Assembly: GCA_039591075.1 (NCBI GenBank) | Contig: JBDHEI010000011.1 | Location: 9,933 to 73,932 of the forward strand | Source of the DNA: Gemmatimonadota bacterium | GTDB taxonomy: Bacteria > Gemmatimonadota > Gemmatimonadetes > Gemmatimonadales > GWC2-71-9 | Reading direction: 5' to 3' | DNA: 64,000 bases | Part shown: piece by piece, positions 8,860 through 33,118 of the stretch | How positions within the stretch are numbered: position 1 is the first letter of the stretch | Layout of the letters: every line of letters begins with the position of its first letter | Made by a program: the position numbers and the translations under genes | Notes under the pieces: model-generated | Databases searched by the model: none | What the model was told of the DNA's origin: nothing | Seen by the model: the letters and a program-made list of their open reading frames with translations, nothing else

Positions 8860-9261
8860 ATGGGCAGACAGGTGGTGATGCTGACGACACTCGCGACGGC
8901 CGTCCTGGTCGCCGCGGCGTGCGGGGGAGCGCGGGAAGTACAGGTCCGACGGGCGGTGGCCCCAACCGTAGCGGACAGCATCTACGTGCAATTGGCCAAC
9001 GACCACTTCAACGACGCGAGAGTGTACGCCCTGTACGAAGGTGGTGCCCGGTATCCCCTTGGGCTCGTGATCGGAAAGGGGAGCGTGCAGGAAGCCGCCC
9101 TCTTGTGGCAGCCCCGCCCGCTCGTCTTCGAGATCAGCTTCATCGCCGAGGACGGAGTGTATCTGACGGAAGAGCTCATGCTGGAGCCGGGCGATCTGAT
9201 CCAGCTCAACATCCCGCCCAACATCAGCTCGTCGGCGTTCTTCCGCCGGGTGTCCGACTAG
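8860..9261 (+). CDS. lipoprotein (hypothetical)
   Basis: Lipobox LVAAAC in MGRQVVMLTTLATAVLVAAACGG. 133 aa. Confidence 0.5.
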   Translation: MGRQVVMLTTLATAVLVAAACGGAREVQVRRAVAPTVADSIYVQLANDHFNDARVYALYEGGARYPLGLVIGKGSVQEAALLWQPRPLVFEISFIAEDGVYLTEELMLEPGDLIQLNIPPNISSSAFFRRVSD

Positions 9262-9351
9262 CGCCCCTCTGCCGCATTTCCACAGGTGTTGCCCGTCGGC
9301 CCCTCAGCGCGCCCTCGCGTCCGCAGGGCCGCGGAGATTCGGTGACGAGGT

Positions 9352-11133
9352 TCAGCCGGTACCGGGTTCGTCGGTCACTTTGCCGTCTGGTGTGGGGTTC
9401 CACAGACTCCGGAAGTAGTACCCGATCGCCAAGAAAACGCCACCAAAGCCCAGGAACAATAGAATCCGCCAGATGGCTTCGACCTGGCGGAGATCCACCA
9501 GGATCAACTTGGCGACGGGCAGAAACAGCGTGACGAGACCCACGGTCCTCGCCGGAGGTACGAGCAGGATCAGCACCAGCGCGTAGATCCCCCATGCGGC
9601 CGTCACGATTCCAGTACCCGCAGGAAGCACGGAGAGCTCGCGCCAGAGCCATGCCAGGAGCGCCGCGTGTGCTGCCAGGCGGTACCATCGACCGGCCTGA
9701 GGACCGGCCCACCACGCCCCCACCAGGGCTGCAGCGACGGCGGCTAGGTCGGTGAGTGCGCGCGCGTTGAACACGGCGTCCCTGGGGGGTCCGTCCCCGG
9801 CTAGACGCTCGAACATCCAGAGTGCGACGAGGCCGAAGAGCAGATGGCCGGTCATGCGGAGTGCATCGTCGTCCAAGCGGTGCGCAACGTGTAACAGCGT
9901 CGCCGCCAGCGCGGCCCAGATCAGGAACTGTGCATGCCCCTCGAACAGCAGCGGTACTGCCCCGGCCACGAGCACGGCTCCCGTCACATGGTGCGCCGAC
10001 ACGAGAACCGGGACCGAGCCAACACGGTCCAGGCGCCACGCCACGGCAGCATAGAGGACTCCACCACCAAGGGCAATCAGGCCCCAGAGGGTGTCTCCGG
10101 CCGACCACACCGCCCGCGACGTGAACAGGGCAACGACGGCGGTGACAAATGTGAGAACGGCGACCTGCCGGTGCGATAGCTCTGCCTCGTCGTGGCCCTT
10201 GACGCCTGCTATCGTGCCGAGGGGCGGTCGTTGCCAGCGCGAGGGGTTGCTCTCGGCCAGTGCCTCGCGCAGCACTGGGATCCCCCAGAACAGCAGCCAC
10301 GTGACGACTACGCCGATCTGCAGCGCAACTCGATTGCCCCACGCTCCGGTCTGAAATCCGAGCGCCAGAACGGTCCAGCCACCCACGGCCGTCGTCCACA
10401 GCAGCGATCGCCACCCCTTGAGCAGGTAGATGGCGCTGGTGCCGACGAGGAGAATCCCGGTGTACGTCACGAGGCCCGGAACGGACCCGACGTCGGTGTA
10501 CAGGAAGAATGGTGTGCCCAGACCACCCGCCGCTCCGAGTACGGCAAGCGCGGGGCCGTTCTGCCTGATGCCGGTGGAGAAGGTGAAGAGGGTCACCAGC
10601 ACCATGAACGCGAAGGCCACCGAGTGGCTGACGAGCTCGAAGAGTTGGAATGCCGCGAATCCGGTGATATACCAGGTCGCAGCGGCTCCCCCGAGCATGA
10701 GCTGACTGAACCACTGTTTGGCCGGTGGGACGCGAAAGCCAATGGTAGCCAGTGCGCCCCCGAGCCCGAGGCCGAATGCGATCCGGATCCTCGGAGTGAG
10801 CCATCCCTGGTCAACGGCGTAGTTGAACAGGAACGCCACGCCGACGAGCAGCAGCCCGATGCCGACTCGGCCGATCCAGTACTGCGGGCCGCGGTGGAGT
10901 AGGGCGGCGATCGGGCCCGGGGGCTTGTGGGGAGTCATCCGCTGGGCCCGGGGCATCGGGCGCGGTCGTTGGCTACCCTCGCCGAGAGGCCGCGGGCTCG
11001 TGGCGGACTGCCCTGTCCGCGCACGCCCGGCCAACCCGTCGACGAATCCCTTCAGAGTGTGCTGCAGGTGCTGCACCGTGGCTTCGAGGTCCTGAAGCCG
11101 TTGCTCGATGGTGCGCTCGGGAGGTTCTGGCAT
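9352..11133 (-). CDS. DUF2339-like polytopic membrane protein
   Basis: ATG 11133 (MPEPPERTIEQRLQDLEATVQHLQ...). A coiled-coil N-terminus and Pro-rich linker are followed by more than 10 hydrophobic helices, which is the usual DUF2339 architecture. The first 18 codons of the track ORF are judged an extension. Confidence 0.7.
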   Translation of the reverse strand: MPEPPERTIEQRLQDLEATVQHLQHTLKGFVDGLAGRARTGQSATSPRPLGEGSQRPRPMPRAQRMTPHKPPGPIAALLHRGPQYWIGRVGIGLLLVGVAFLFNYAVDQGWLTPRIRIAFGLGLGGALATIGFRVPPAKQWFSQLMLGGAAATWYITGFAAFQLFELVSHSVAFAFMVLVTLFTFSTGIRQNGPALAVLGAAGGLGTPFFLYTDVGSVPGLVTYTGILLVGTSAIYLLKGWRSLLWTTAVGGWTVLALGFQTGAWGNRVALQIGVVVTWLLFWGIPVLREALAESNPSRWQRPPLGTIAGVKGHDEAELSHRQVAVLTFVTAVVALFTSRAVWSAGDTLWGLIALGGGVLYAAVAWRLDRVGSVPVLVSAHHVTGAVLVAGAVPLLFEGHAQFLIWAALAATLLHVAHRLDDDALRMTGHLLFGLVALWMFERLAGDGPPRDAVFNARALTDLAAVAAALVGAWWAGPQAGRWYRLAAHAALLAWLWRELSVLPAGTGIVTAAWGIYALVLILLVPPARTVGLVTLFLPVAKLILVDLRQVEAIWRILLFLGFGGVFLAIGYYFRSLWNPTPDGKVTDEPGTG

Positions 11134-25511: not shown

Positions 25512-25967
25512 TTACGCGGCCTTGAGCTCCGACGTGCAGCTCGAGCAGCGGGTGGCTTTGATGGCCACCTTCGTGAGGCAATACGGGCATTCCTTCTTGT
25601 CCGGTGGGGGTGGGGCAGCCTCTTCCTTCTGCTGCATGCGCATGAGGCCTCTTACCAAGAGGAATACGGCAAACGCCACGATCAGGAAGCTCACGATGTT
25701 GTCGATGAACATTCCGTAATTGACCGTGACCGCGCCCGCCTCGGCGGCCGCGTCGGGCGTCAGGTACGGCCCGGGTACGTCACCTGCCTTGACCACGGCG
25801 AACAGGTTGGAAAAGCTCACGTTGCCGAGCAAGATGCCGATCGGCGGCATGATGATGTCGGACACGAGCGATTTCACGATCGTGCCGAACGCACCACCGA
25901 TGATGATACCCACGGCCATGTCGACGACGTTTCCGCGCATGGCGAACGCTTTGAAGTCTTTCAGCAC
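25512..25967 (-). CDS. mscL: large-conductance mechanosensitive channel MscL with C-terminal CxxC...CxxC tail
   Basis: [44 protein letters not shown] is the MscL signature. GTG 25967 follows TAGGAG. The tail is [19 protein letters not shown]. Confidence 0.9.
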
Positions 25968-26053: not shown

Positions 26054-27481
26054 TTACTGATCCAACCGCTGCAGCTCCACGCGGCGGTTCTGAGCGCGAC
26101 CCTCACGCGTGCCGTTGTCGGCCACGGGATTGTCTGGGCCGTACCCCCTCGCCTCGAGCTGGTTGGCCGCAACGCCCTGCTGTACGAGGTAGGCGACGAC
26201 CGACTCCGCACGCCGCTGAGAGAGCCCCATGTTGTACGCGCGTGACCCGGTGTTGTCGGTATGCCCCCCCACCTCGACGCGCACCTCGGGGTTACCCTGC
26301 AGGGTCTCCCCGACGCGGGTGAGGATCATCCGTGCCTGCGCCGTGAGCTGCGCGCTGTTCGTCTCGAAGTTGACCCCCTCCAGTACGATCCGCGTCTCGG
26401 CTTCCCGGAAGAGTATCGGGCAACCGGTCTGGTCGACCTGGGTGTTGGCGGTGGTGTCCGGACAGCGATCGATACCGTTCGGCACACCGTCGTTGTCGCT
26501 GTCGCTCGGGCAGCCCTGCGCATCGACCGTCGCGCCGGCCGGGGTGTTGGGGCAGCGGTCCAGGACGTCGGGCACACCGTCCCGATCCGCATCCAGGGCG
26601 CAGCCGTTGCCGTCGACCTGGGCGCCGCGCGGCGTGTTGGGACACCGGTCCGCCGTGTCGGGCACGCCGTCGCTGTCCGCGTCGGGGACGCAACCACTCG
26701 CATTGACCGCGGTCCCGCGCGGCGTGTTGGGACACTGGTCCGCCGAGTCACGCACACCGTCGCCGTCCGAGTCGAGTGGACAGCCTTCGGCGTCGACCCG
26801 CTCGCCGGTCGGAGTGTCGGGACACCGATCTTGGAAGTTAGGCACGCCGTCCCCGTCGGCATCCAGGGGACATCCCCTGGCGTCCACCGGCTCGCCGGCC
26901 GGCGTTCCCCCGCACGCGTCCCGCTTGTCGCTCACGCCGTCGCCATCGGTATCGGCGGCGCGACTGCCGAGGAGGATGCCCACGCCTCCCTGCGCGCCAA
27001 AGTTCCAGTTCTTGTCGGCCCCGAAATAATCCGCGAGCCCCTCGATACGGGCAAACACCACGTCGGACAGCCAGAACCGGAAGCCGAACAAACCGTTCAC
27101 GCCGAAGTCGGTCGCGTCGGTGTTGTCGTAGATGTTGTAGACTCCGCCGGCGCCGATCAGCATCGAGACGCGATCGTGCAGCGGGGCGTTGTACACGAGA
27201 CGGGCATGGACCGGGATGTACTTGAGGTTGCCTCCGGCGTCCAGCTCCGCTGGCGTGTAGGATCCCGTTGCCTCGAGTTCTAGATTCGGCACGAAGAAGA
27301 CGCCCAAGCGGCCGCCGAACCCGATGCGGTCTTTGAGCGTCAGGGTGCTGTCGAACCACGTGTACCGGGCGAACGCGCCCAGCTCCACGGCGCCCGGACG
27401 CTGGGCAAAGGCGGGCGTCGCCAGCGCTGCCAGACCAACGGCAGTCACCACGGCGCTCCGTTTCAACCATTTCCTCTGCAT
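26054..27481 (-). CDS. OmpA-family outer-membrane protein with thrombospondin type-3-like calcium-binding repeats
   Basis: ATG 27481 follows AGGAGG. Signal peptide ...[10 protein letters not shown]-terminal beta-barrel-like region. Six DxDxDGVxDxxDxCPxTP repeats. C-terminal OmpA domain ([25 protein letters not shown]). Confidence 0.9.
26417..26953 (-). repeat. coding tandem repeats (6 x about 32 aa, TSP3-like)
   Basis: DTDGDGV / DADGDGV / DSDGDGV / DADSDGV / DADRDGV / DSDNDGV units, each followed by D.CP.TP.G..VD..GC. Coordinates computed from residue positions 177-355. Confidence 0.8.
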
Positions 27482-27691
27482 CGAGTTGCCTCCTTGGAAG
27501 ATCGATCGCGAATTCGCCCTGGCGAAGAGCAAGGCGTATACCAGGATATAAGTCTCTGCGGCAAAAAGGTTTACAGAGTTGGCACCCGAGCCGGTACCCA
27601 GCGGGCGTTGTTTCATTCCGGAATCGATCACCCCAGAATGGGACGTGAGCACGGGCGGCGGGACGAGAACGGGCGTCGAAAACTCTCCGCG

Positions 27692-29152
27692 TCAGGAGCG
27701 AAGCTCGTACTTTTTGATCTTGCGGTAGAGGGTGGTGCGTCCAATCCCGAGCTCACGCACCACCTGCGCCACATTGCCGTCATGGCGCTCGAGCGCTTCG
27801 GCAATCGCGTCGCGCTCGATCTCCTCGAGCGTCCGAAGGCGCCGGGGCGCCACCGAGGAATTGGTCCCCACGAAGGCAGCCGGCGGCGCCTCGGGCAACG
27901 ACGCGGTGTTGGCCCTGCGCCCGGTGTCTGGAGCCAGGGTGCTCCCCGCTCCGGCCTCCCGAACTCGTTTGGGAAGATCTCGGACACTAATGGCACGGCC
28001 GTCTGCCTCGACCGCGGCGCGCTCGATCGCGTTCTGCAGCTCGCGAACGTTCCCGGGCCAGCCATACGACGCCAGGCGCCCCATCGTCTCGGGTGCAATG
28101 GACAGCGTCTTGGAGCGATTCCCCGCTGCCTGCTTCAGGAAATGCCCGGCGAGGAGCGGGATGTCGTCGCGGCGAGCCCTGAGCGGCGGAACCTCGATAT
28201 CCATGACCGCAATGCGGAAGTAGAGATCTTCCCGGAAAGTGCCGGCCTGAACCTCCGTTGCGAGATCACGATGGGTCGCGACGATCAGGCGGAAATCGGA
28301 GCGCACCTCGGCCGATCCGCCGACCCGTAAGAACGTCCGCTCCTGCAGTACGCGAAGCAACTTGGCCTGGAGACTCGCCGAGAGTTCGCCGATCTCGTCG
28401 AGAAACAACGTGCCGCCGTCGGCCCGCTCGAAGCACCCGGCCCGGCGGGCGGTGGCTCCGGTGAACGCACCCTTCTCATGACCGAACAGCTCCGACTCCT
28501 GGAGCGACTCCGGGATCGCGGCGCAACTCAGGGCGATGAAGGGCCCCTCACGGCGCGAGCCCTGCCCGTGGATGGCCCTGGCCACCAGCTCCTTGCCGGT
28601 GCCGCTCTCCCCAAGGATCAGCACCGTGATGTCGCTGGCCGACACGCGATCGAGTCGCCGAAACAGCTCTCGGATGGATCGTGACTGGCCCACGATACCC
28701 GGGTACCCGCGGCCCTCCGCTTCGCGCTCCAGCTGAGCGAGCCGCACCGACATGCGCGACCGCTCCACCGCGTGCGTGACCTCAGCCACGAACTTGGCCC
28801 GGTCTACGGGTTTGACCAGGTAGTCGTATGCCCCGGCCTTCATCGCCCTCACGGCGAACTCGGTGCCGGTCTGCGCGGTCATCACGATCACGGGGAGGAG
28901 CGGATGGCGCGCCTTGATGCGGTCGAGGGTCTCGAAGCCGTCGATACCGGGCATGACGAGATCGAGGCACACCGCGTCGGGGAGGGAGGTGGCCAGCGCC
29001 GCCAGGCATCCTTCGCCGTCGTGCGCGATCCGGACCTCGAAGCCTTCGGACTCGAGCCACCGCTGCTGCAACTCGCCGAGCAGGACGTCGTCGTCCACGA
29101 GGAGGACGAGTCCCTTGGTGTCCCGCGACGGCGATCCGGATGACTGCGCCAT
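27692..29152 (-). CDS. sigma-54-dependent response regulator (REC + AAA+ + Fis-type HTH; NtrC family)
   Basis: REC domain (LLVDDD...[10 protein letters not shown]...DYLVKP). Walker [15 protein letters not shown] loop (EKGAFTGA). [11 protein letters not shown]-terminal HTH ([26 protein letters not shown]). Start at ATG 29152; the track ORF has an 89-codon upstream extension. Confidence 0.9.
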
Positions 29153-29268
29153 GTTGTGGCCTGCTCGGTTCGCACAAATGTAGTCGCCGGGGCGGGATTT
29201 GACAGTCCGACGAGTCTCGGCAGGCGGTCGGAAGGCCGGGACCGAATCGGAACGGTGCCGGACGGTTT

Positions 29269-29291
29269 TCGGAACGACCATCCCGTTCTGA
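29269..29291 (+). promoter_or_regulatory. imperfect inverted repeat, candidate activator (UAS) site
   Basis: TCGGAACG-accatcc-CGTTCTGA (8-7-8, one mismatch). A further direct copy of TCGGAACG lies at 29247-29254. Sits about 40-80 nt upstream of the predicted -24 element. Confidence 0.3.
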
Positions 29292-29328
29292 TACGCTCCG
29301 GAGTAGCTCATTCCAGCAAATCCGTCCC

Positions 29329-29344
29329 TGGCCCTGGAGTTGCA
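29329..29344 (+). promoter_or_regulatory. predicted sigma-54 (-24/-12) promoter
   Basis: TGGCCCtggagTTGCA against the consensus TGGCAC-N5-TTGCW: GG-N10-GC spacing is exact, with one mismatch. It is 62 nt upstream of ATG 29406 and divergent from the sigma-54 activator gene. Confidence 0.5.
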
Positions 29345-29405
29345 CGGGGAGCGCGTGGCGCGCCCAGTACGACGATCGAGGCGCGCCGCGAACCGCAACG
29401 CCGTG

Positions 29406-29732
29406 ATGGTTATGCCCAACGACCCAGTGCCGGAGCACTCACCCGTTCAGATCGAGCGACGCATGGCCGATCTCGTCGCGCGGTATCTCGAGCGGTGTCG
29501 AGCGGATGTCGCCGCCATGCGGTCGGCTCTGGACGGTGGTACCCTCGCGACCGTCCGCGGACTGGGTGACCGGCTGGCTGGCTCGGGTGCGGCTTACGGC
29601 TTCGGCGAGATATCTGCCCGAGGCTTTGCCATCGAGCGCGCCGCCCGCGATGCGGATCTGTTCGCCATCAGGGAGGCGGTCGAGGCCGTCGACCGCTACC
29701 TGGCCACGGTGGTCGTCACCTATCGGGACTGA
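29406..29732 (+). CDS. Hpt-like four-helix-bundle protein lacking the canonical phospho-accepting His
   Basis: ...DGGTLATVRGLGDRLAGSGAAYGFGEISARGFAIERAARDADLFAIREAVEAVDRYL aligns by eye to the Hpt pattern ...aHxLKGSaanlGaxxLxxlcxxLExxa..., with Asp where the His is expected. Start is at ATG 29406, GTG 29403 or ATG 29412. The track start at 29340 lies inside the predicted promoter. Confidence 0.55.
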   Translation: MVMPNDPVPEHSPVQIERRMADLVARYLERCRADVAAMRSALDGGTLATVRGLGDRLAGSGAAYGFGEISARGFAIERAARDADLFAIREAVEAVDRYLATVVVTYRD

Positions 29733-29858
29733 CTAGCAGCGTCGGCGGCGCGTCTTCTCCACTCCGATATCCCTGACCTTCACCCTTCGCGCCCGAGGTG
29801 TATCTTCTCTGGGGTTTTCGTCCCGCTTGCGCTATCTGAGGGAGACCGATCGAGCCAG

Positions 29859-30434
29859 ATGACGAAGAAGTCGCCACGCCAGACCACGCACGCACCGCAG
29901 GATGGGTCGCGGGCCGGGGCCGATGCTCAGACCTCCAAGCACCTCGAGCAGGTCCGAGCCATCCTGTTCGGCGAGCAGTTCACGCTGTTCGAGGGTCGCC
30001 TGGAACGGTTGGAGCAGCGGCTCATCGAGGAGCAGGCAGCATTCCGCGACGCGACCCATGGGCGGTTGGACGCGCTCGCAGCTGAGATGGAGAAACACGT
30101 GAATGCGCTGCGGCGAACACTGGGCGATGGGGAGGCGAAGCACGCGGAGGCGCTGGCGCAGCTGGCGGGCGAGCTCGATCGATCGGTCACTGGGATGGAG
30201 CAACAACTCGCGCAGGTTCGGGCGGATGCCGATCGGTTGGCGGTGGAGCACCGTGCACAGACTGCCGAACGCATCGACGCGCTCGCGGCGCAGCTCGGAG
30301 ATCAGTCGAACGCCCTGTCGGCACTCGTCGAGCAGAAGCTCGAGGAGCTCCGTACCCTCACCGCCGATCGCGAGTCCCTCGCCGCGCTGTTCGAAGAGAT
30401 GGCCTCCCGACTGAAGCGCAGCCCCTCCGGGTAG
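29859..30434 (+). CDS. coiled-coil protein (hypothetical)
   Basis: 191 aa, almost entirely heptad-like helical sequence (LERLEQRLIEEQAAFRDATHGRLDALAAEMEKHVNALRR...). No TM segment and no catalytic motif. Confidence 0.55.
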   Translation: MTKKSPRQTTHAPQDGSRAGADAQTSKHLEQVRAILFGEQFTLFEGRLERLEQRLIEEQAAFRDATHGRLDALAAEMEKHVNALRRTLGDGEAKHAEALAQLAGELDRSVTGMEQQLAQVRADADRLAVEHRAQTAERIDALAAQLGDQSNALSALVEQKLEELRTLTADRESLAALFEEMASRLKRSPSG

Positions 30435-30475
30435 CGCACGTTCGAGGCCTTCGGAGCGTCGCGCGCGGTCCAGCC

Positions 30476-30976
30476 ATGATCCGCAAGAAGATCTGCATGC
30501 TCGGTGCCTTCGCGGCCGGTAAGACGAGCCTCGTGCAACGATTCGTCGCGGGGCTGTTCTCTGAGAAATACCACACGACGATTGGCGTGAAGATCGATCG
30601 GAGGGAGGTCGCGGTAGACGGCGGGACGGTCACCCTCCTCCTGTGGGATCTCGCCGGCGAGGACGAGTTCCAGCGCGTTCGCATGTCCTACCTCCGTGGA
30701 TCGGCTGGTTTGCTGTTCGTAGTGGACGGGACCCGCCGCGGCACACTCGACCAGGCGAAGCTCTTGCGACGCGAGGCCCACGACATCGTCGGCGACGTGC
30801 CGGTGGTCGTTGCCCTCAACAAGTCCGACCTGGCCACCGAGTGGGAGCTCGATGCGGGTGTCGGTGACCATCTCCGCGCCGAGGGCTGGACGGTGTTCGT
30901 GACCAGCGCCAAGAGCGGCGTGGGTGTGGAAGAGGCGTTCCGGTGGCTGGCGCACGCGGTGAACGGGGGGACATGA
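30476..30976 (+). CDS. Ras/Rab-like small GTPase
   Basis: G1 GAFAAGKT, switch I YHTTIGV, G3 WDLAGED, G4 NKSD, G5 TSAK. 166 aa. The stop overlaps the next start (ATGA at 30973-30976). Confidence 0.85.
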   Translation: MIRKKICMLGAFAAGKTSLVQRFVAGLFSEKYHTTIGVKIDRREVAVDGGTVTLLLWDLAGEDEFQRVRMSYLRGSAGLLFVVDGTRRGTLDQAKLLRREAHDIVGDVPVVVALNKSDLATEWELDAGVGDHLRAEGWTVFVTSAKSGVGVEEAFRWLAHAVNGGT

Positions 30977-32499
30977 GCACGTTCCCGGTGCCGGTCCTCG
31001 CGTTCTTGCAGGAGCAGGTTATCGACCTGCAGGCGCCCGCCTTCCTGCTGCTCGCCGACGATGGCACCGTGGTGGACTGGGGTGGTGCCCTCGGCGCCTA
31101 CGGCATCCATGATCTCGAGCGCGGGGTCGATGTCGCGGAGCGCGTGCCGCTGCTCCAGGGCCTTCTCCCACTTGGGGTCGCACGCGAAGGGGTCCCGCTC
31201 GTGGAGACCGATGCCGGTGCGGTGGCAAACGTCGATCTGTTCCGTGGCGCCGAGGGAACGTGGGTCGTGCTGCGCAACGTGACCCCCGCGGTCGAGCAGG
31301 AGCGGGCGCTGCAGCAAAGCCGGAATGCGATGCAGCTCCTGGAACGGCGCATGGCCAAGCAGGAGGCCGCAAAGGGTGTCCCTGGCGGTTTTCTCCCCGA
31401 TGCGCTCGCCGCTCTCGGCATCGCCGTCTTCGAGCCGCTCGGCACGGACCGCTTCCGCCTGCTCGCGGCTCCGCCCCATTGGCTCGGTGCGCTCTGGCCC
31501 GACATCACGACCGCTACCGACGAGTGTGCGCTGCACGAGCGCTCGCCGTTTCTGCGCGACTTTCTCGAGGAAGCCGATGGGTACTGGCAAACCGGGAGCG
31601 GGGCGTGTCGTGCCGGGCCGTGGACCGAGGTAGACGCCTTGGGCCGCGACTGGCACCTAGAAGCTGTTGCGCTCTCGGTGCAGGGTCGATCGCTACTCGC
31701 GATCGTCGATGTTGGCCAGAGCCATCTCGAGAAGACGGCGTTGCTCCAGCGCGCGCGCGAGCACGTTCTCGGCCACCAGCGGTTGCTCAAAGATCTCGAG
31801 AAGAAAGACGTGCTGCTGCACTGCATCGTGCATGACCTCCGGACGCCGATGGTGTCGGCGCACGCCGCGCTCCAGTTGCTCGCGATGGAGACGCTCCCCG
31901 ACGATGCCCGACGCGCGATCGTCGTTGGCCGTACGGAACTGGAGCGACAGGACCTCTTGATCCGCTCGATCCTCGACGTGTTCGCAGCTGACCTCAACGA
32001 GTTGGAGAGCCGCGCTGACGCTGCACCGGTGGATGTTGTCGACTGCGCGGCGGAGGTGGTCGACGCATTCCGGCCCGCGTTTCAGCTGCGTGGCATCCTG
32101 TTAGCCCTCGAGCGGACCGATGTAGAGCCACCAGGGGGGTGGGGCGTCGTCGCCGAACACACACGACTGGTGCGCGTATTGGCGAATCTGCTGGACAATG
32201 CGCTGCGCCACTCGCGCCGAGACACGACGGTGACTGTCGGGCTCGCAGTGGACGGCGAGGGAATCTTCGTCACGGTCGATGACGAGGGCCCTGGGGTGCC
32301 GGCCGACCTCCAGCCGCGACTGTTCGACCGCTTCTCGCACGGTGGGTCGGCCGGCAACATCGGGCTCGGGTTGCACTTCTGCCGGGTTACGATCGAAGGG
32401 TGGGGTGGCCGCATCGGACAAGAGAACCGCGTCGGGGGTGGGTCCCGGTTCTGGTTCCGACTTCCGCAGTCCTCCGGGCGCGCTCGCGCCAACGCATAG
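30973..32499 (+). CDS. soluble sensor histidine kinase (two PAS-like N-terminal modules + HisKA + HATPase_c)
   Basis: H-box LLHCIVHDLRTPM, N-box LANLLDNALRHS, G1 DDEGPGV, G2 GLGLHF. No TM segment. About 270 aa of N-terminal sensory region. The start is coupled to the GTPase stop. Confidence 0.85.
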   Translation: MSTFPVPVLAFLQEQVIDLQAPAFLLLADDGTVVDWGGALGAYGIHDLERGVDVAERVPLLQGLLPLGVAREGVPLVETDAGAVANVDLFRGAEGTWVVLRNVTPAVEQERALQQSRNAMQLLERRMAKQEAAKGVPGGFLPDALAALGIAVFEPLGTDRFRLLAAPPHWLGALWPDITTATDECALHERSPFLRDFLEEADGYWQTGSGACRAGPWTEVDALGRDWHLEAVALSVQGRSLLAIVDVGQSHLEKTALLQRAREHVLGHQRLLKDLEKKDVLLHCIVHDLRTPMVSAHAALQLLAMETLPDDARRAIVVGRTELERQDLLIRSILDVFAADLNELESRADAAPVDVVDCAAEVVDAFRPAFQLRGILLALERTDVEPPGGWGVVAEHTRLVRVLANLLDNALRHSRRDTTVTVGLAVDGEGIFVTVDDEGPGVPADLQPRLFDRFSHGGSAGNIGLGLHFCRVTIEGWGGRIGQENRVGGGSRFWFRLPQSSGRARANA

Positions 32500-32559: not shown

Positions 32560-32710
32560 AAATCGGGCCGTCACACCTGGGAGCCGTGGTGTCGGTCGAG
32601 CGAGGGAAATCGTTGGTGCCCAGCAACTTGGACGAATCTGTCGCGCTGGCATGAACCTTCCCTTGGAGCGTGGCGGTATCGACAGACCGAACTTGCGAAA
32701 GGATGGACCG

Positions 32711-33118
32711 ATGAGTTACAAGATTCAGGACATCGAGGGCATCGGACCCTCGTACGCCCAGAAGCTGGCGGTTGCCAAGGTCAGAACGACCAACGACTTG
32801 CTCAAGTACTGCTGTGACACCAGGGGCCGCATGAGCGTAGGTGCCAAGACCGGCGTGAGTGAGGCGCAGCTGCTCAAGTGGGCGAACATGGCCGATCTGA
32901 TGCGCATCTCGGGCGTCGGCTCGGAGTTCTCCGAGTTGTTGGAGGCTGCCGGGGTCGACACGGTCAAAGAATTGCGGAATCGCAACGCCGAAAACCTCGC
33001 GATCAAGATGAAAGAGGTCAATCGCGCTCGGCGGCTCACGCGCACCACCCCGAGCGCGAAGAGCGTACAGAAGTGGATCATCCAGGCGGGGAAGCTCGCT
33101 CCCGTCATCACCCACTAA
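32711..33118 (+). CDS. DUF4332-like protein
   Basis: MSYKIQDIEGIGPSYAQKLA...LLKWANMADLMRISGVGSEFSELLEAAGVDTVKELRNRN: tandem helix-hairpin-helix-like units, as I recall for DUF4332. Confidence 0.65.
   Translation: MSYKIQDIEGIGPSYAQKLAVAKVRTTNDLLKYCCDTRGRMSVGAKTGVSEAQLLKWANMADLMRISGVGSEFSELLEAAGVDTVKELRNRNAENLAIKMKEVNRARRLTRTTPSAKSVQKWIIQAGKLAPVITH

Follow-up and report, generated by a model that had tools for sequence, protein, structure and literature searches.

Gene content of the locus

The stretch analyzed here, 64 kb of contig JBDHEI010000011.1 from a Gemmatimonadota bacterium (hereafter the window, whose 64 kb are the full scope of each whole-window negative result reported below), contains a five-gene locus that brings together a Ras/Rab-like small GTPase, a histidine kinase, and an NtrC-type activator of sigma-54-dependent transcription. 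Four genes, encoding an Hpt-like protein, a coiled-coil protein, the GTPase (rup), and the kinase (hk), lie in series behind a predicted sigma-54 promoter, P1, and the ntrC-type gene is divergent from them (Table 1). The open reading frame (ORF) map and the Pfam and NCBIfam matches agree with the five gene positions given in a preliminary description of this DNA, and the families it had named for profile searches (Ras, Hpt, HisKA/HATPase_c, and Sigma54_activat) were all matched, with a Ras fold for the GTPase. We argue below that the locus is probably a variant of the Group 1 Rup systems, which have been described from genomes only (Wuichet & Søgaard-Andersen 2014, Genome Biol Evol 7:57; PMC4316618).

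For comparison, we surveyed 80 genome loci from more than eight phyla, each centered on a homologue of the window GTPase, and mapped the five window proteins onto them with tblastn. Motif statistics for the GTPase were drawn from 120 homologues and residue conservation in the N-terminal region of the kinase from 61 sequences. Three related Gemmatimonadota contigs in the survey (L001 to L003) encode GTPases 80 to 95% identical to that of the window, and a more distant Gemmatimonadota locus, L013, carries ntrC, rup, and hk only. Many of the loci come from metagenome-assembled genomes (MAGs), and some of their taxonomic labels are doubtful; contigs labelled "Clostridia" or "Heliobacteriaceae" have an organization nearly identical to that of the Acidobacteriota contigs.

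Table 1. Features of the GTPase locus and its flank in the window (aa, amino acids; AF2, AlphaFold2; REC, receiver domain; UAS, upstream activating sequence)
Feature	Position	Strand	Basis
OmpA/OprF-type outer-membrane protein gene: signal peptide, beta-barrel, thrombospondin type-3 repeats, OmpA_C	26054..27481	-	Pfam
P2, sigma-54-like -24/-12 element TGGTATACGCCTTGCT, about 45 nt upstream of the OmpA-like gene	27528..27543	-	Conservation, position
TCCCATTCTG, motif shared with the P1 upstream region, candidate activator-binding half-site	27634..27643	-	Conserved in L001-L003
ntrC-type response regulator / sigma-54 enhancer-binding protein (REC, AAA+, HTH_8)	27692..29152	-	Pfam, NCBIfam
UAS-like repeats, 40-90 bp upstream of P1	29239..29299	+	Repeat search, conservation in L001-L003
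P1, predicted sigma-54 -24/-12 promoter TGGCCCTGGAGTTGCA heading hpt-like, coiled-coil, rup, and hk	29329..29344	+	Motif, conservation
Pseudo-Hpt, 108-aa four-helix bundle	29406..29732; start codon 29406 or 29412	+	Pfam Hpt, YPD1 alignment, AF2, Foldseek
Coiled-coil partner protein of Group 1 Rup systems, 191 aa	29859..30434	+	tblastn homologues, PMC4316618
rup, Group 1 Rup-family Ras/Rab-like small GTPase, 166 aa	30476..30976	+	Pfam Ras, homologues, motifs
hk, histidine kinase, 508 aa	30973-32499	+	HisKA + HATPase_c = residues 284-499 (Pfam)
N1 module, kinase residues 1-135: PAS-like alpha/beta domain and long helix with QQxxN motif (Q115)	30973..31377	+	Alignment, AF2
N2 module, kinase residues 140-275: second PAS-like domain, long helix (Q259, R262) into DHp	31390..31797	+	AF2, Foldseek, alignment
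Kinase core: DHp with His287 and HATPase_c catalytic domain	31798..32499	+	Pfam HisKA, HATPase_c

The GTPase, its output module, and the identity of the locus

The GTPase scores 106.7 bits against the Pfam Ras family and 81.6 bits against Roc, and it carries the complete set of G1 to G5 motifs that the preliminary description had reported: GAFAAGKT (G1), TTIG (G2), DLAGE within WDLAGE (G3), NKSD (G4), and SAK (G5). Two residues had been overlooked there: G3 has Glu where the catalytic Gln (Ras-Q61) is expected, and Phe occupies the position of Ras-G12. The G3 position is Glu in about 110 of the 120 homologues and Gln in none, WDLxGE and GA[F/Y]AxGKT are found in a similar share (about 110/120), and the Ras-G12 position (the G1 motif of the window lies at 30500-30530) is Phe or Tyr in nearly all of them. 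In Ras itself, a bulky residue at G12 blocks arginine-finger catalysis by GTPase-activating proteins (GAPs). By this established biochemistry, the missing G3 Gln and the aromatic residue argue against Ras-like arginine-finger catalysis in Rup, and GTP hydrolysis probably needs a residue supplied in trans. The aromatic residue is not highlighted in the accessible part of the text of PMC4316618.

Homologues of the GTPase number in the thousands, with 286 confirmed matches in a species-level genome collection. The protein is about 55 to 63% identical to proteins of Nostocales, Blastocatellia, Nitrospirales, Desulfobacterota, Gammaproteobacteria, Victivallales, Rhodothermales, and others, and the Nostocales, Blastocatellia, and Nitrospirales homologues sit in canonical Rup neighborhoods. 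As judged from its sequence, it is a single-domain GTPase with Ras-like G1 to G5 motifs that belongs to Rup, the bacterial clade closest to Rab/Ras/Rho/Ran (PMC4316618), and its earlier label of "eukaryote-like" holds only in the sense of this relationship.

No Pfam family matches residues 1 to 280 of the kinase, and its structural model has no transmembrane segment. The AF2 model (mean predicted local distance difference test score, or pLDDT, of 89.4 with 60 homologues, and above 90 in the N1 part) divides this region in two. N1, an alpha/beta module, spans residues 1 to 103, and the long helix behind it (104-133) bears Q115; N2, also an alpha/beta module, spans residues 140 to 246 and leads into an uninterrupted helix (248-304) that reaches His287 of the DHp domain. 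The best Foldseek matches of the whole chain are PAS/LOV histidine kinases, for example YF1 (4gcz), and as a description of the overall modelled architecture the label PAS-like is well supported. A duplication relating N1 and N2 to each other was considered and was not detectable (probability 4%). The near-invariant residues in the family alignment are P5, G37, G38, G63, P66, D86, and Q115 in N1 and W217, E219, Q259, and R262 in N2. Of 61 homologues, 59 have Q115, which belongs to a QQxxN(E) motif, 60 have Q259, and 57 have the predicted phosphorylation site, His287.

A word-indexed protein search with kinase residues 1 to 275 gave no match, and an exhaustive HMMER search found the family, with 1168 clusters (at 50% identity) at E <= 1e-3. 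The N1/N2 family is thus large, yet without a Pfam model. Its association with the GTPase is nearly constant across the survey: an N1/N2 homologue directly follows the GTPase in 78 of the 80 loci, a result that bears out the functional coupling of GTPase and His-Asp pathway proposed for the window. The ATGA overlap of the rup TGA and the hk ATG (ACATGAGC), reported earlier with the suggestion of co-translation, is also present as described, and in 47 of 68 cases the N1 start codon is placed between -8 and +12 nt relative to the rup stop, so that the suggested translational coupling generalizes across phyla. The two modules need not belong to one polypeptide. In Nostocales and Nitrospirales, N1 is a free-standing ORF of about 120 to 138 aa that starts at the base after the rup stop, and N2 with the output domain is a separate gene in another frame (e.g., L005:8499-8915 and 8935-10056; free-standing N1 also occurs in L004, L009, L017, and many other loci of these two orders). 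N1 and N2 are fused in Gemmatimonadota, Blastocatellia, and Gammaproteobacteria. The outputs attached to them comprise histidine kinases, hybrid kinases, sigma-54 AAA+ proteins, in which N2 takes the place of the receiver domain, HD-GYP, GGDEF/EAL, and nucleotide cyclase proteins, and SpoIIE phosphatases, and such a range of output types is the signature of a portable input module. Three Acidobacteriota loci (L007:2913-3980, L008:6583-7660, and L039:8001-9120) encode two tandem rup paralogues, about 54 to 60% identical to the query, before the N1/N2 protein.

The coiled-coil protein has only weak Pfam matches, to helical-repeat and coiled-coil families. Homologues recovered by tblastn (27-34% identity, E down to 1e-18) nevertheless lie upstream of the GTPase in 68 of the 80 loci. 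The usual distance from the coiled-coil gene to rup is about 2.4 to 2.7 kb, and in about 69 of the 80 loci a protein of about 580 to 650 aa, here called X, is encoded between them; X consists of an N-terminal domain without a Pfam family and a C-terminal OmpA domain. In the window and in L001 to L003 the distance is 41 nt, and within the 64 kb the only match of a profile hidden Markov model (HMM) of X is to an unrelated outer-membrane porin, in its OmpA_C part. We rejected the idea that the Hpt-like protein is X in disguise (hhalign probability 1%) and the idea that the coiled-coil protein and X share an N-terminal domain (a short motif only, hhalign probability 1%). That motif, at coiled-coil residues ~28-52 (29916-29990), reads L..VR.ILFG.Q...RLE.RL, compared with L..LR.LL.G.E...L..RL in the N termini of X (e.g., L005:6300-6400). 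Candidatus Entotheonella TSY1 (L072:7400-10900) also has no X: its coiled-coil gene lies directly upstream of rup and is followed by an N2-sigma-54 AAA+ activator, with an N1-like segment encoded about 2.5 kb downstream. X has therefore been lost more than once.

The published Group 1 neighborhood consists of rup, a cytoplasmic coiled-coil protein, a protein with an unknown domain and usually a transmembrane helix and an OmpA domain, and an output enzyme with an invariant Gln in its N-terminal part, the enzyme being a histidine kinase or a diguanylate cyclase/phosphodiesterase (PMC4316618). The catalytic Gln of G3 is missing from Group 1 Rup proteins, and their describers speculated that the output protein supplies a Gln in trans and proposed links to two-component systems (PMC4316618). 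The window locus shares with these systems a Rup-clade GTPase without the G3 Gln, an upstream coiled-coil homologue, an output kinase with a conserved N-terminal Gln region, and the absence of MglB. Altogether five of six Group 1 features are found, the exception being X; the invariant Gln of 2014 corresponds to either Q115 or Q259. We consider it probable, at roughly 60%, that the locus is a reduced, fully cytoplasmic Group 1 Rup module joined to a sigma-54 two-component output and working by the mechanism proposed below.

Three elements go beyond the 2014 description, which contains neither the word "sigma" nor the word "Hpt": a gene for pseudo-Hpt, loss of the membrane/OmpA component, and the NtrC/sigma-54 wiring. 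The survey further adds that the conserved N-terminal region of the output proteins comprises two PAS-like modules, the first often free-standing and translationally coupled to rup, and that the outputs include direct fusions to sigma-54 AAA+ domains, HD-GYP domains, cyclases, and PP2C phosphatases.

The pseudo-Hpt protein and the sigma-54 wiring

The first gene behind P1 encodes a protein that narrowly passes the Pfam Hpt cutoff (28.5 bits vs 24.6). When it is aligned with YPD1 (LGHFLKGSSAALG vs LGDRLAGSGAAYG; at the level of the helix, pseudo-Hpt LGDRLAGSGAAYGF vs YPD1 LGHFLKGSSAALGL), Asp55 takes the place of the phospho-His (His64) and Ala58 that of the conserved Lys. The HxxKG signature of a phospho-His site is therefore absent, in keeping with the earlier characterization of the protein as His-less, and without a phospho-His it cannot relay phosphate. 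Its AF2 model has four helices (pLDDT 89.1), and the top Foldseek matches are Hpt domains, namely RcsD, HptB, and fungal and plant HPts. The HptB match has a template-modeling score (TM) of 0.72 and a root-mean-square deviation (rmsd) of 1.6 Å; the Foldseek E-values, at 0.016 or higher, are weak, which is common for bundles this short.

Homologues of pseudo-Hpt are rare. A search of 5.8 billion clusters found only four; these come from close relatives, have Asp55 without exception, and share 42 invariant columns, including the whole LGDRLAGSG helix, and protein identity across L001 to L003 is 79 to 98%. In L003, a Gemmatimonadaceae MAG, a 1-nt deletion (L003:3350-3684, cf. window 29550-29640) shifts the frame of the hpt-like gene after about residue 65, and the independently assembled protein P0124 is the same frameshifted product. 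Past the deletion, the alternative frame still encodes a well-conserved C-terminal half, which suggests that the lesion is either a very recent pseudogenization or an assembly error shared by both. Given this frameshift and the absence of the gene from L013, pseudo-Hpt is accessory and outside the core of the system. Could it be a decaying remnant without a role, perhaps left from a hybrid kinase's C-terminal Hpt domain, so that the working system consists of the coiled-coil protein, Rup, the kinase, and the activator? Hybrid kinases with genuine C-terminal Hpt domains do occur in some Rup loci (L010 and L057), and the scarcity of homologues, the deletion in one relative, and the missing copy in L013 would all fit such an origin. 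A remnant would, however, hardly be expected to retain the identity and invariant columns noted above, a confidently modelled fold, the first place after a conserved promoter, and, even in its frameshifted copy, a conserved C-terminal half. We regard the remnant explanation as doubtful.

The divergently encoded activator matches Response_reg, Sigma54_activat (233.6 bits), AAA_lid_14, and HTH_8 in Pfam, and both the GAFTGA motif and the acceptor motif of the receiver domain are readable in its sequence. Its NCBIfam ntrC score of 461.7 bits lies below the equivalog cutoff of 558.6, indicating a member of the NtrC family that is not NtrC proper. The gene has the same position relative to the Rup operon in L001 to L003 and in L013 (69-92% identity, with L013 at 69%).

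P1 was found where the preliminary description had placed a -24/-12 promoter. Its GG and GC elements and the distance between them are invariant in L001 to L003; TGGCC-N2-GGAGTTGCA is retained throughout, and the two bases between and the flanks vary, which is the pattern expected of a functional -24/-12 promoter. A second conserved element of this type, P2, lies beyond ntrC, with TGGTA and CTTGCT invariant in L001 to L003 and four of the five positions between them variable. Together, P1 and P2 make the earlier suggestion of a sigma-54 output with autoregulation plausible. Two copies of TCGGAACG (29247 and 29269), set 22 bp apart, precede P1 and are followed by an inverted CGTTCTGA at 29285-29292. 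The TCCCATTCTG-site motif occurs three times in the window compared with 0.22 expected, and two of the three copies lie upstream of P1 and P2. These repeats are candidate sites at which the activator may bind.

The gene behind P2 matches OmpA (87.9 bits), TSP_3, OMP_b-brl, and OprF in Pfam, has an AAGGAGG ribosome-binding site before its ATG at 27481, and adjoins ntrC in L001 to L003 as well. It is a probable second target of the activator. Some 110 nt downstream of it, and likewise on the minus strand, is a gene for the mechanosensitive channel MscL (25512-25940) that P2 could transcribe as well. In L013, a perfect sigma-54 promoter, CTGGCATGCTGGTTGCT (L013:4609-4624, minus strand), precedes a gene for a DUF481 outer-membrane protein near the orthologous activator, with TTCGG(G/A)ACAGG direct repeats upstream of it (L013:4690-4730); no -24/-12 motif was found upstream of rup in that locus. 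An envelope-related role is suggested by these outer-membrane targets and by the OmpA-domain protein of the canonical systems. It is consistent with the proposal that sigma-54 controls mainly the bacterial exterior (PMC3162934).

Sigma-54 wiring occurs in 15 of the 80 loci, seven of which pair the kinase with an NtrC-type regulator and eight of which fuse N2 to AAA+. As a general feature of Rup operons a sigma-54 promoter was rejected, since strict -24/-12 motifs upstream of the operon were found only in L001 to L003. No intrinsic terminators or sigma-70 promoters stood above chance within the locus. A gene for a DUF4332/HhH protein (32699-33118, plus strand) begins 200 nt after the kinase.

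Proposed signalling and comparison with known systems

From the domain identities, the gene order, and the conserved motifs and promoters, we infer the following contacts, signalling direction, and promoter activities. Through the ATGA overlap, synthesis of Rup would be tied to that of the kinase, and Rup would bind the PAS-like module N1. The GTP- or GDP-bound state of Rup would be passed through the N1 helix to the N2 PAS-like domain and along the long signalling helix to DHp, and would thereby set the balance between kinase and phosphatase activity. Gln115 of N1 is a candidate for the residue that completes the active site of Rup in trans, in which case the kinase would be both effector and GAP. 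The coiled-coil protein may be a regulator or scaffold of Rup, acting as a GEF (guanine nucleotide exchange factor), a GDI (guanine nucleotide dissociation inhibitor), or a scaffold. The kinase would phosphorylate the NtrC-type regulator, which would activate sigma-54 transcription at P1, giving feedback on its own hpt-like/coiled-coil/rup/hk operon, and at P2, before the OmpA/TSP3 outer-membrane protein gene. If P2 does drive that gene, the physiological output would concern the cell envelope. By analogy with the plant protein AHP6, pseudo-Hpt would most likely be a modulator that binds the receiver domain and forms a negative or buffering arm. The complete circuit, in which Rup directly gates the kinase through N1, N1 supplies Gln in trans, pseudo-Hpt resembles a phosphorylated relay protein by virtue of its Asp and adjusts the NtrC receiver, and sigma-54 controls outer-membrane proteins, is offered as a tentative scheme that is less likely than not to hold.

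Several observations weigh against this interpretation. Literature searches found no measurement of the interactions or of the GTPase, kinase, or promoter activity of any Group 1 Rup system. Whether Rup acts on the kinase or the kinase on Rup is not readable from the sequence. The PAS-like nature of N1 taken alone comes from the topology and order of secondary structure in the model, and an N1 profile gave no meaningful match to PDB sequences. In the N1 of the window, two Asp residues found in about 90% of the family are replaced by Asn (D86N and D102N; N102 is common to the window and its closest relatives, which keep D86), and this module may not behave like a canonical one. The hpt-like gene, broken in L003 and P0124 and missing from L013, which keeps ntrC, rup, and hk, may be dispensable. 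P1 is the only exact TGGC-N7-TTGCW in the window, one match compared with 0.58 expected by chance in 64 kb, so that the motif alone proves little and the weight falls on its conservation. P2 has two mismatches to the consensus, which are common by chance, and the evidence for it is conservation and position. For both promoters, conservation is drawn from only three close relatives. Finally, no ORF with an RpoN box lies within the 64-kb window, and rpoN, if present, would be encoded elsewhere in the genome.

The direction of signalling is where a second explanation enters. The tandem PAS-like domains could sense a cytoplasmic signal, and N1 could serve mainly as a GAP or regulator of the nucleotide state of Rup, whose effector would then be the coiled-coil protein or a protein encoded elsewhere, with the kinase-NtrC branch running in parallel. 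PAS-like folds are typical ligand sensors, the near-invariant Gln of N1 fits a GAP role (PMC4316618), N1 often stands free beside rup as a dedicated GAP would, and the coiled-coil protein, present in 68 of 80 loci, is a possible effector. The N1/N2 modules are, however, attached to at least seven kinds of output enzyme, as expected of an input module that receives a Rup signal and not of a GAP. L013, moreover, keeps only rup, hk, and ntrC without a coiled-coil gene, which makes the GTPase and the N1/N2 output protein the minimal conserved unit. The variety of outputs and the survival of the rup-hk-ntrC unit in L013 favor signalling from Rup to the output, and we consider the reverse direction improbable.

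The reading of the preliminary description, an undescribed five-gene GTPase-phosphorelay system with the Hpt-like protein as an integral relay component, is very improbable and largely refuted by the neighborhood survey and the 2014 paper: the exact set of ntrC, hpt-like, coiled-coil, rup, and hk genes is indeed confined to the window and three close relatives, and that paper mentions neither sigma nor Hpt, but three of the five components (rup, the coiled-coil gene, and the N-terminal module of the kinase) define the published Group 1 neighborhood, and the Hpt-like protein lacks the phospho-His, is missing from L013, and is frameshifted in L003. An anti-phage defense system was also rejected, as PADLOC gave nothing beyond noise from coiled coils and an AAA+ similarity of the activator that is generic.

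Rup GTPases are widespread, and as the closest bacterial relatives of Rab/Ras/Rho/Ran they are of interest beyond this locus. Our literature searches found no experimental study of them, including none of Group 1 systems since their description in 2014. On paper, the Gemmatimonadota variant is tractable: all of its components are soluble, the membrane/OmpA component is gone, and its two predicted sigma-54 promoters could be used as reporters. It could turn two questions, what Rup does and how GTP is hydrolyzed without a catalytic Gln of its own, into reconstitution experiments. A soluble circuit leading from a G protein to transcription would, if true, give a Rup GTPase a defined mechanism and a physiological output for the first time, and would also be a bacterial example of effector-as-GAP logic.

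Compared with Group 1 Rup systems as published, the window locus is without the ~600-aa protein with its unknown domain, transmembrane helix, and periplasmic OmpA domain. It adds an Hpt protein without the His, and its conserved unit includes a divergent NtrC-type regulator and two predicted sigma-54 promoters. N1, N2, and kinase are one polypeptide here, whereas N1 is a separate ORF in Nostocales and Nitrospirales.

The locus resembles the actinobacterial conservon/AGPS systems (CvnA-D; PMC13343842, PMC13621833) in being a multi-protein "bacterial G-protein" module that pairs the gene for a small Ras-superfamily GTPase with that for a histidine kinase, the presumed target of the GTPase. The conservon GTPase, however, is of the MglA family and requires the Roadblock/MglB protein CvnB and the DUF742 protein CvnC alongside a membrane kinase, CvnA, whereas the window GTPase is of the Rup type and its kinase is soluble. 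Neither a Roadblock/MglB nor a DUF742 match came from Pfam scans covering the five genes, the neighbors encoding the OmpA-like, MscL, metallophosphoesterase, and DUF4332 proteins, and two more genes downstream. The earlier exclusion of a conservon or an MglA/MglB pair is thereby upheld, on the grounds of the missing Roadblock and DUF742 proteins, the different GTPase family, and the soluble kinase. With MglA/MglB of Myxococcus the locus has in common a single-domain bacterial Ras-like GTPase switch linked to response-regulator signalling. The GTPase family differs: G3 is modified in MglA (PMC4316618), whereas the DLAGE of the window has the usual Asp and Gly. There is also no Roadblock GAP in the window locus, and the proposed output is transcription and not cell polarity.

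NtrB/NtrC provides the closest parallel for the two-component half, with a HisKA/HATPase_c kinase under cytoplasmic PAS-type input, a regulator composed of REC, AAA+ (GAFTGA), and HTH_8 domains, -24/-12 promoters with upstream repeats, and autoregulation of its own operon, which in the window is a prediction. Unlike NtrB, the window kinase would receive its input through the GTPase-associated N1/N2 modules and not through PII/GlnB control, and the predicted target is an outer-membrane protein gene in place of nitrogen-assimilation genes. For pseudo-Hpt, the nearest counterparts are the plant pseudo-phosphotransfer proteins, AHP6 of Arabidopsis and the PHPs of rice, which have Asn at the His position (PMC3572949, PMC11497342). 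In both, the Hpt fold is kept and the phospho-accepting His is replaced, and the plant proteins are thought to compete for phosphorelay partners. The window protein differs in being bacterial, in having Asp and not Asn, and in belonging to a simple His-Asp pathway that needs no Hpt step.

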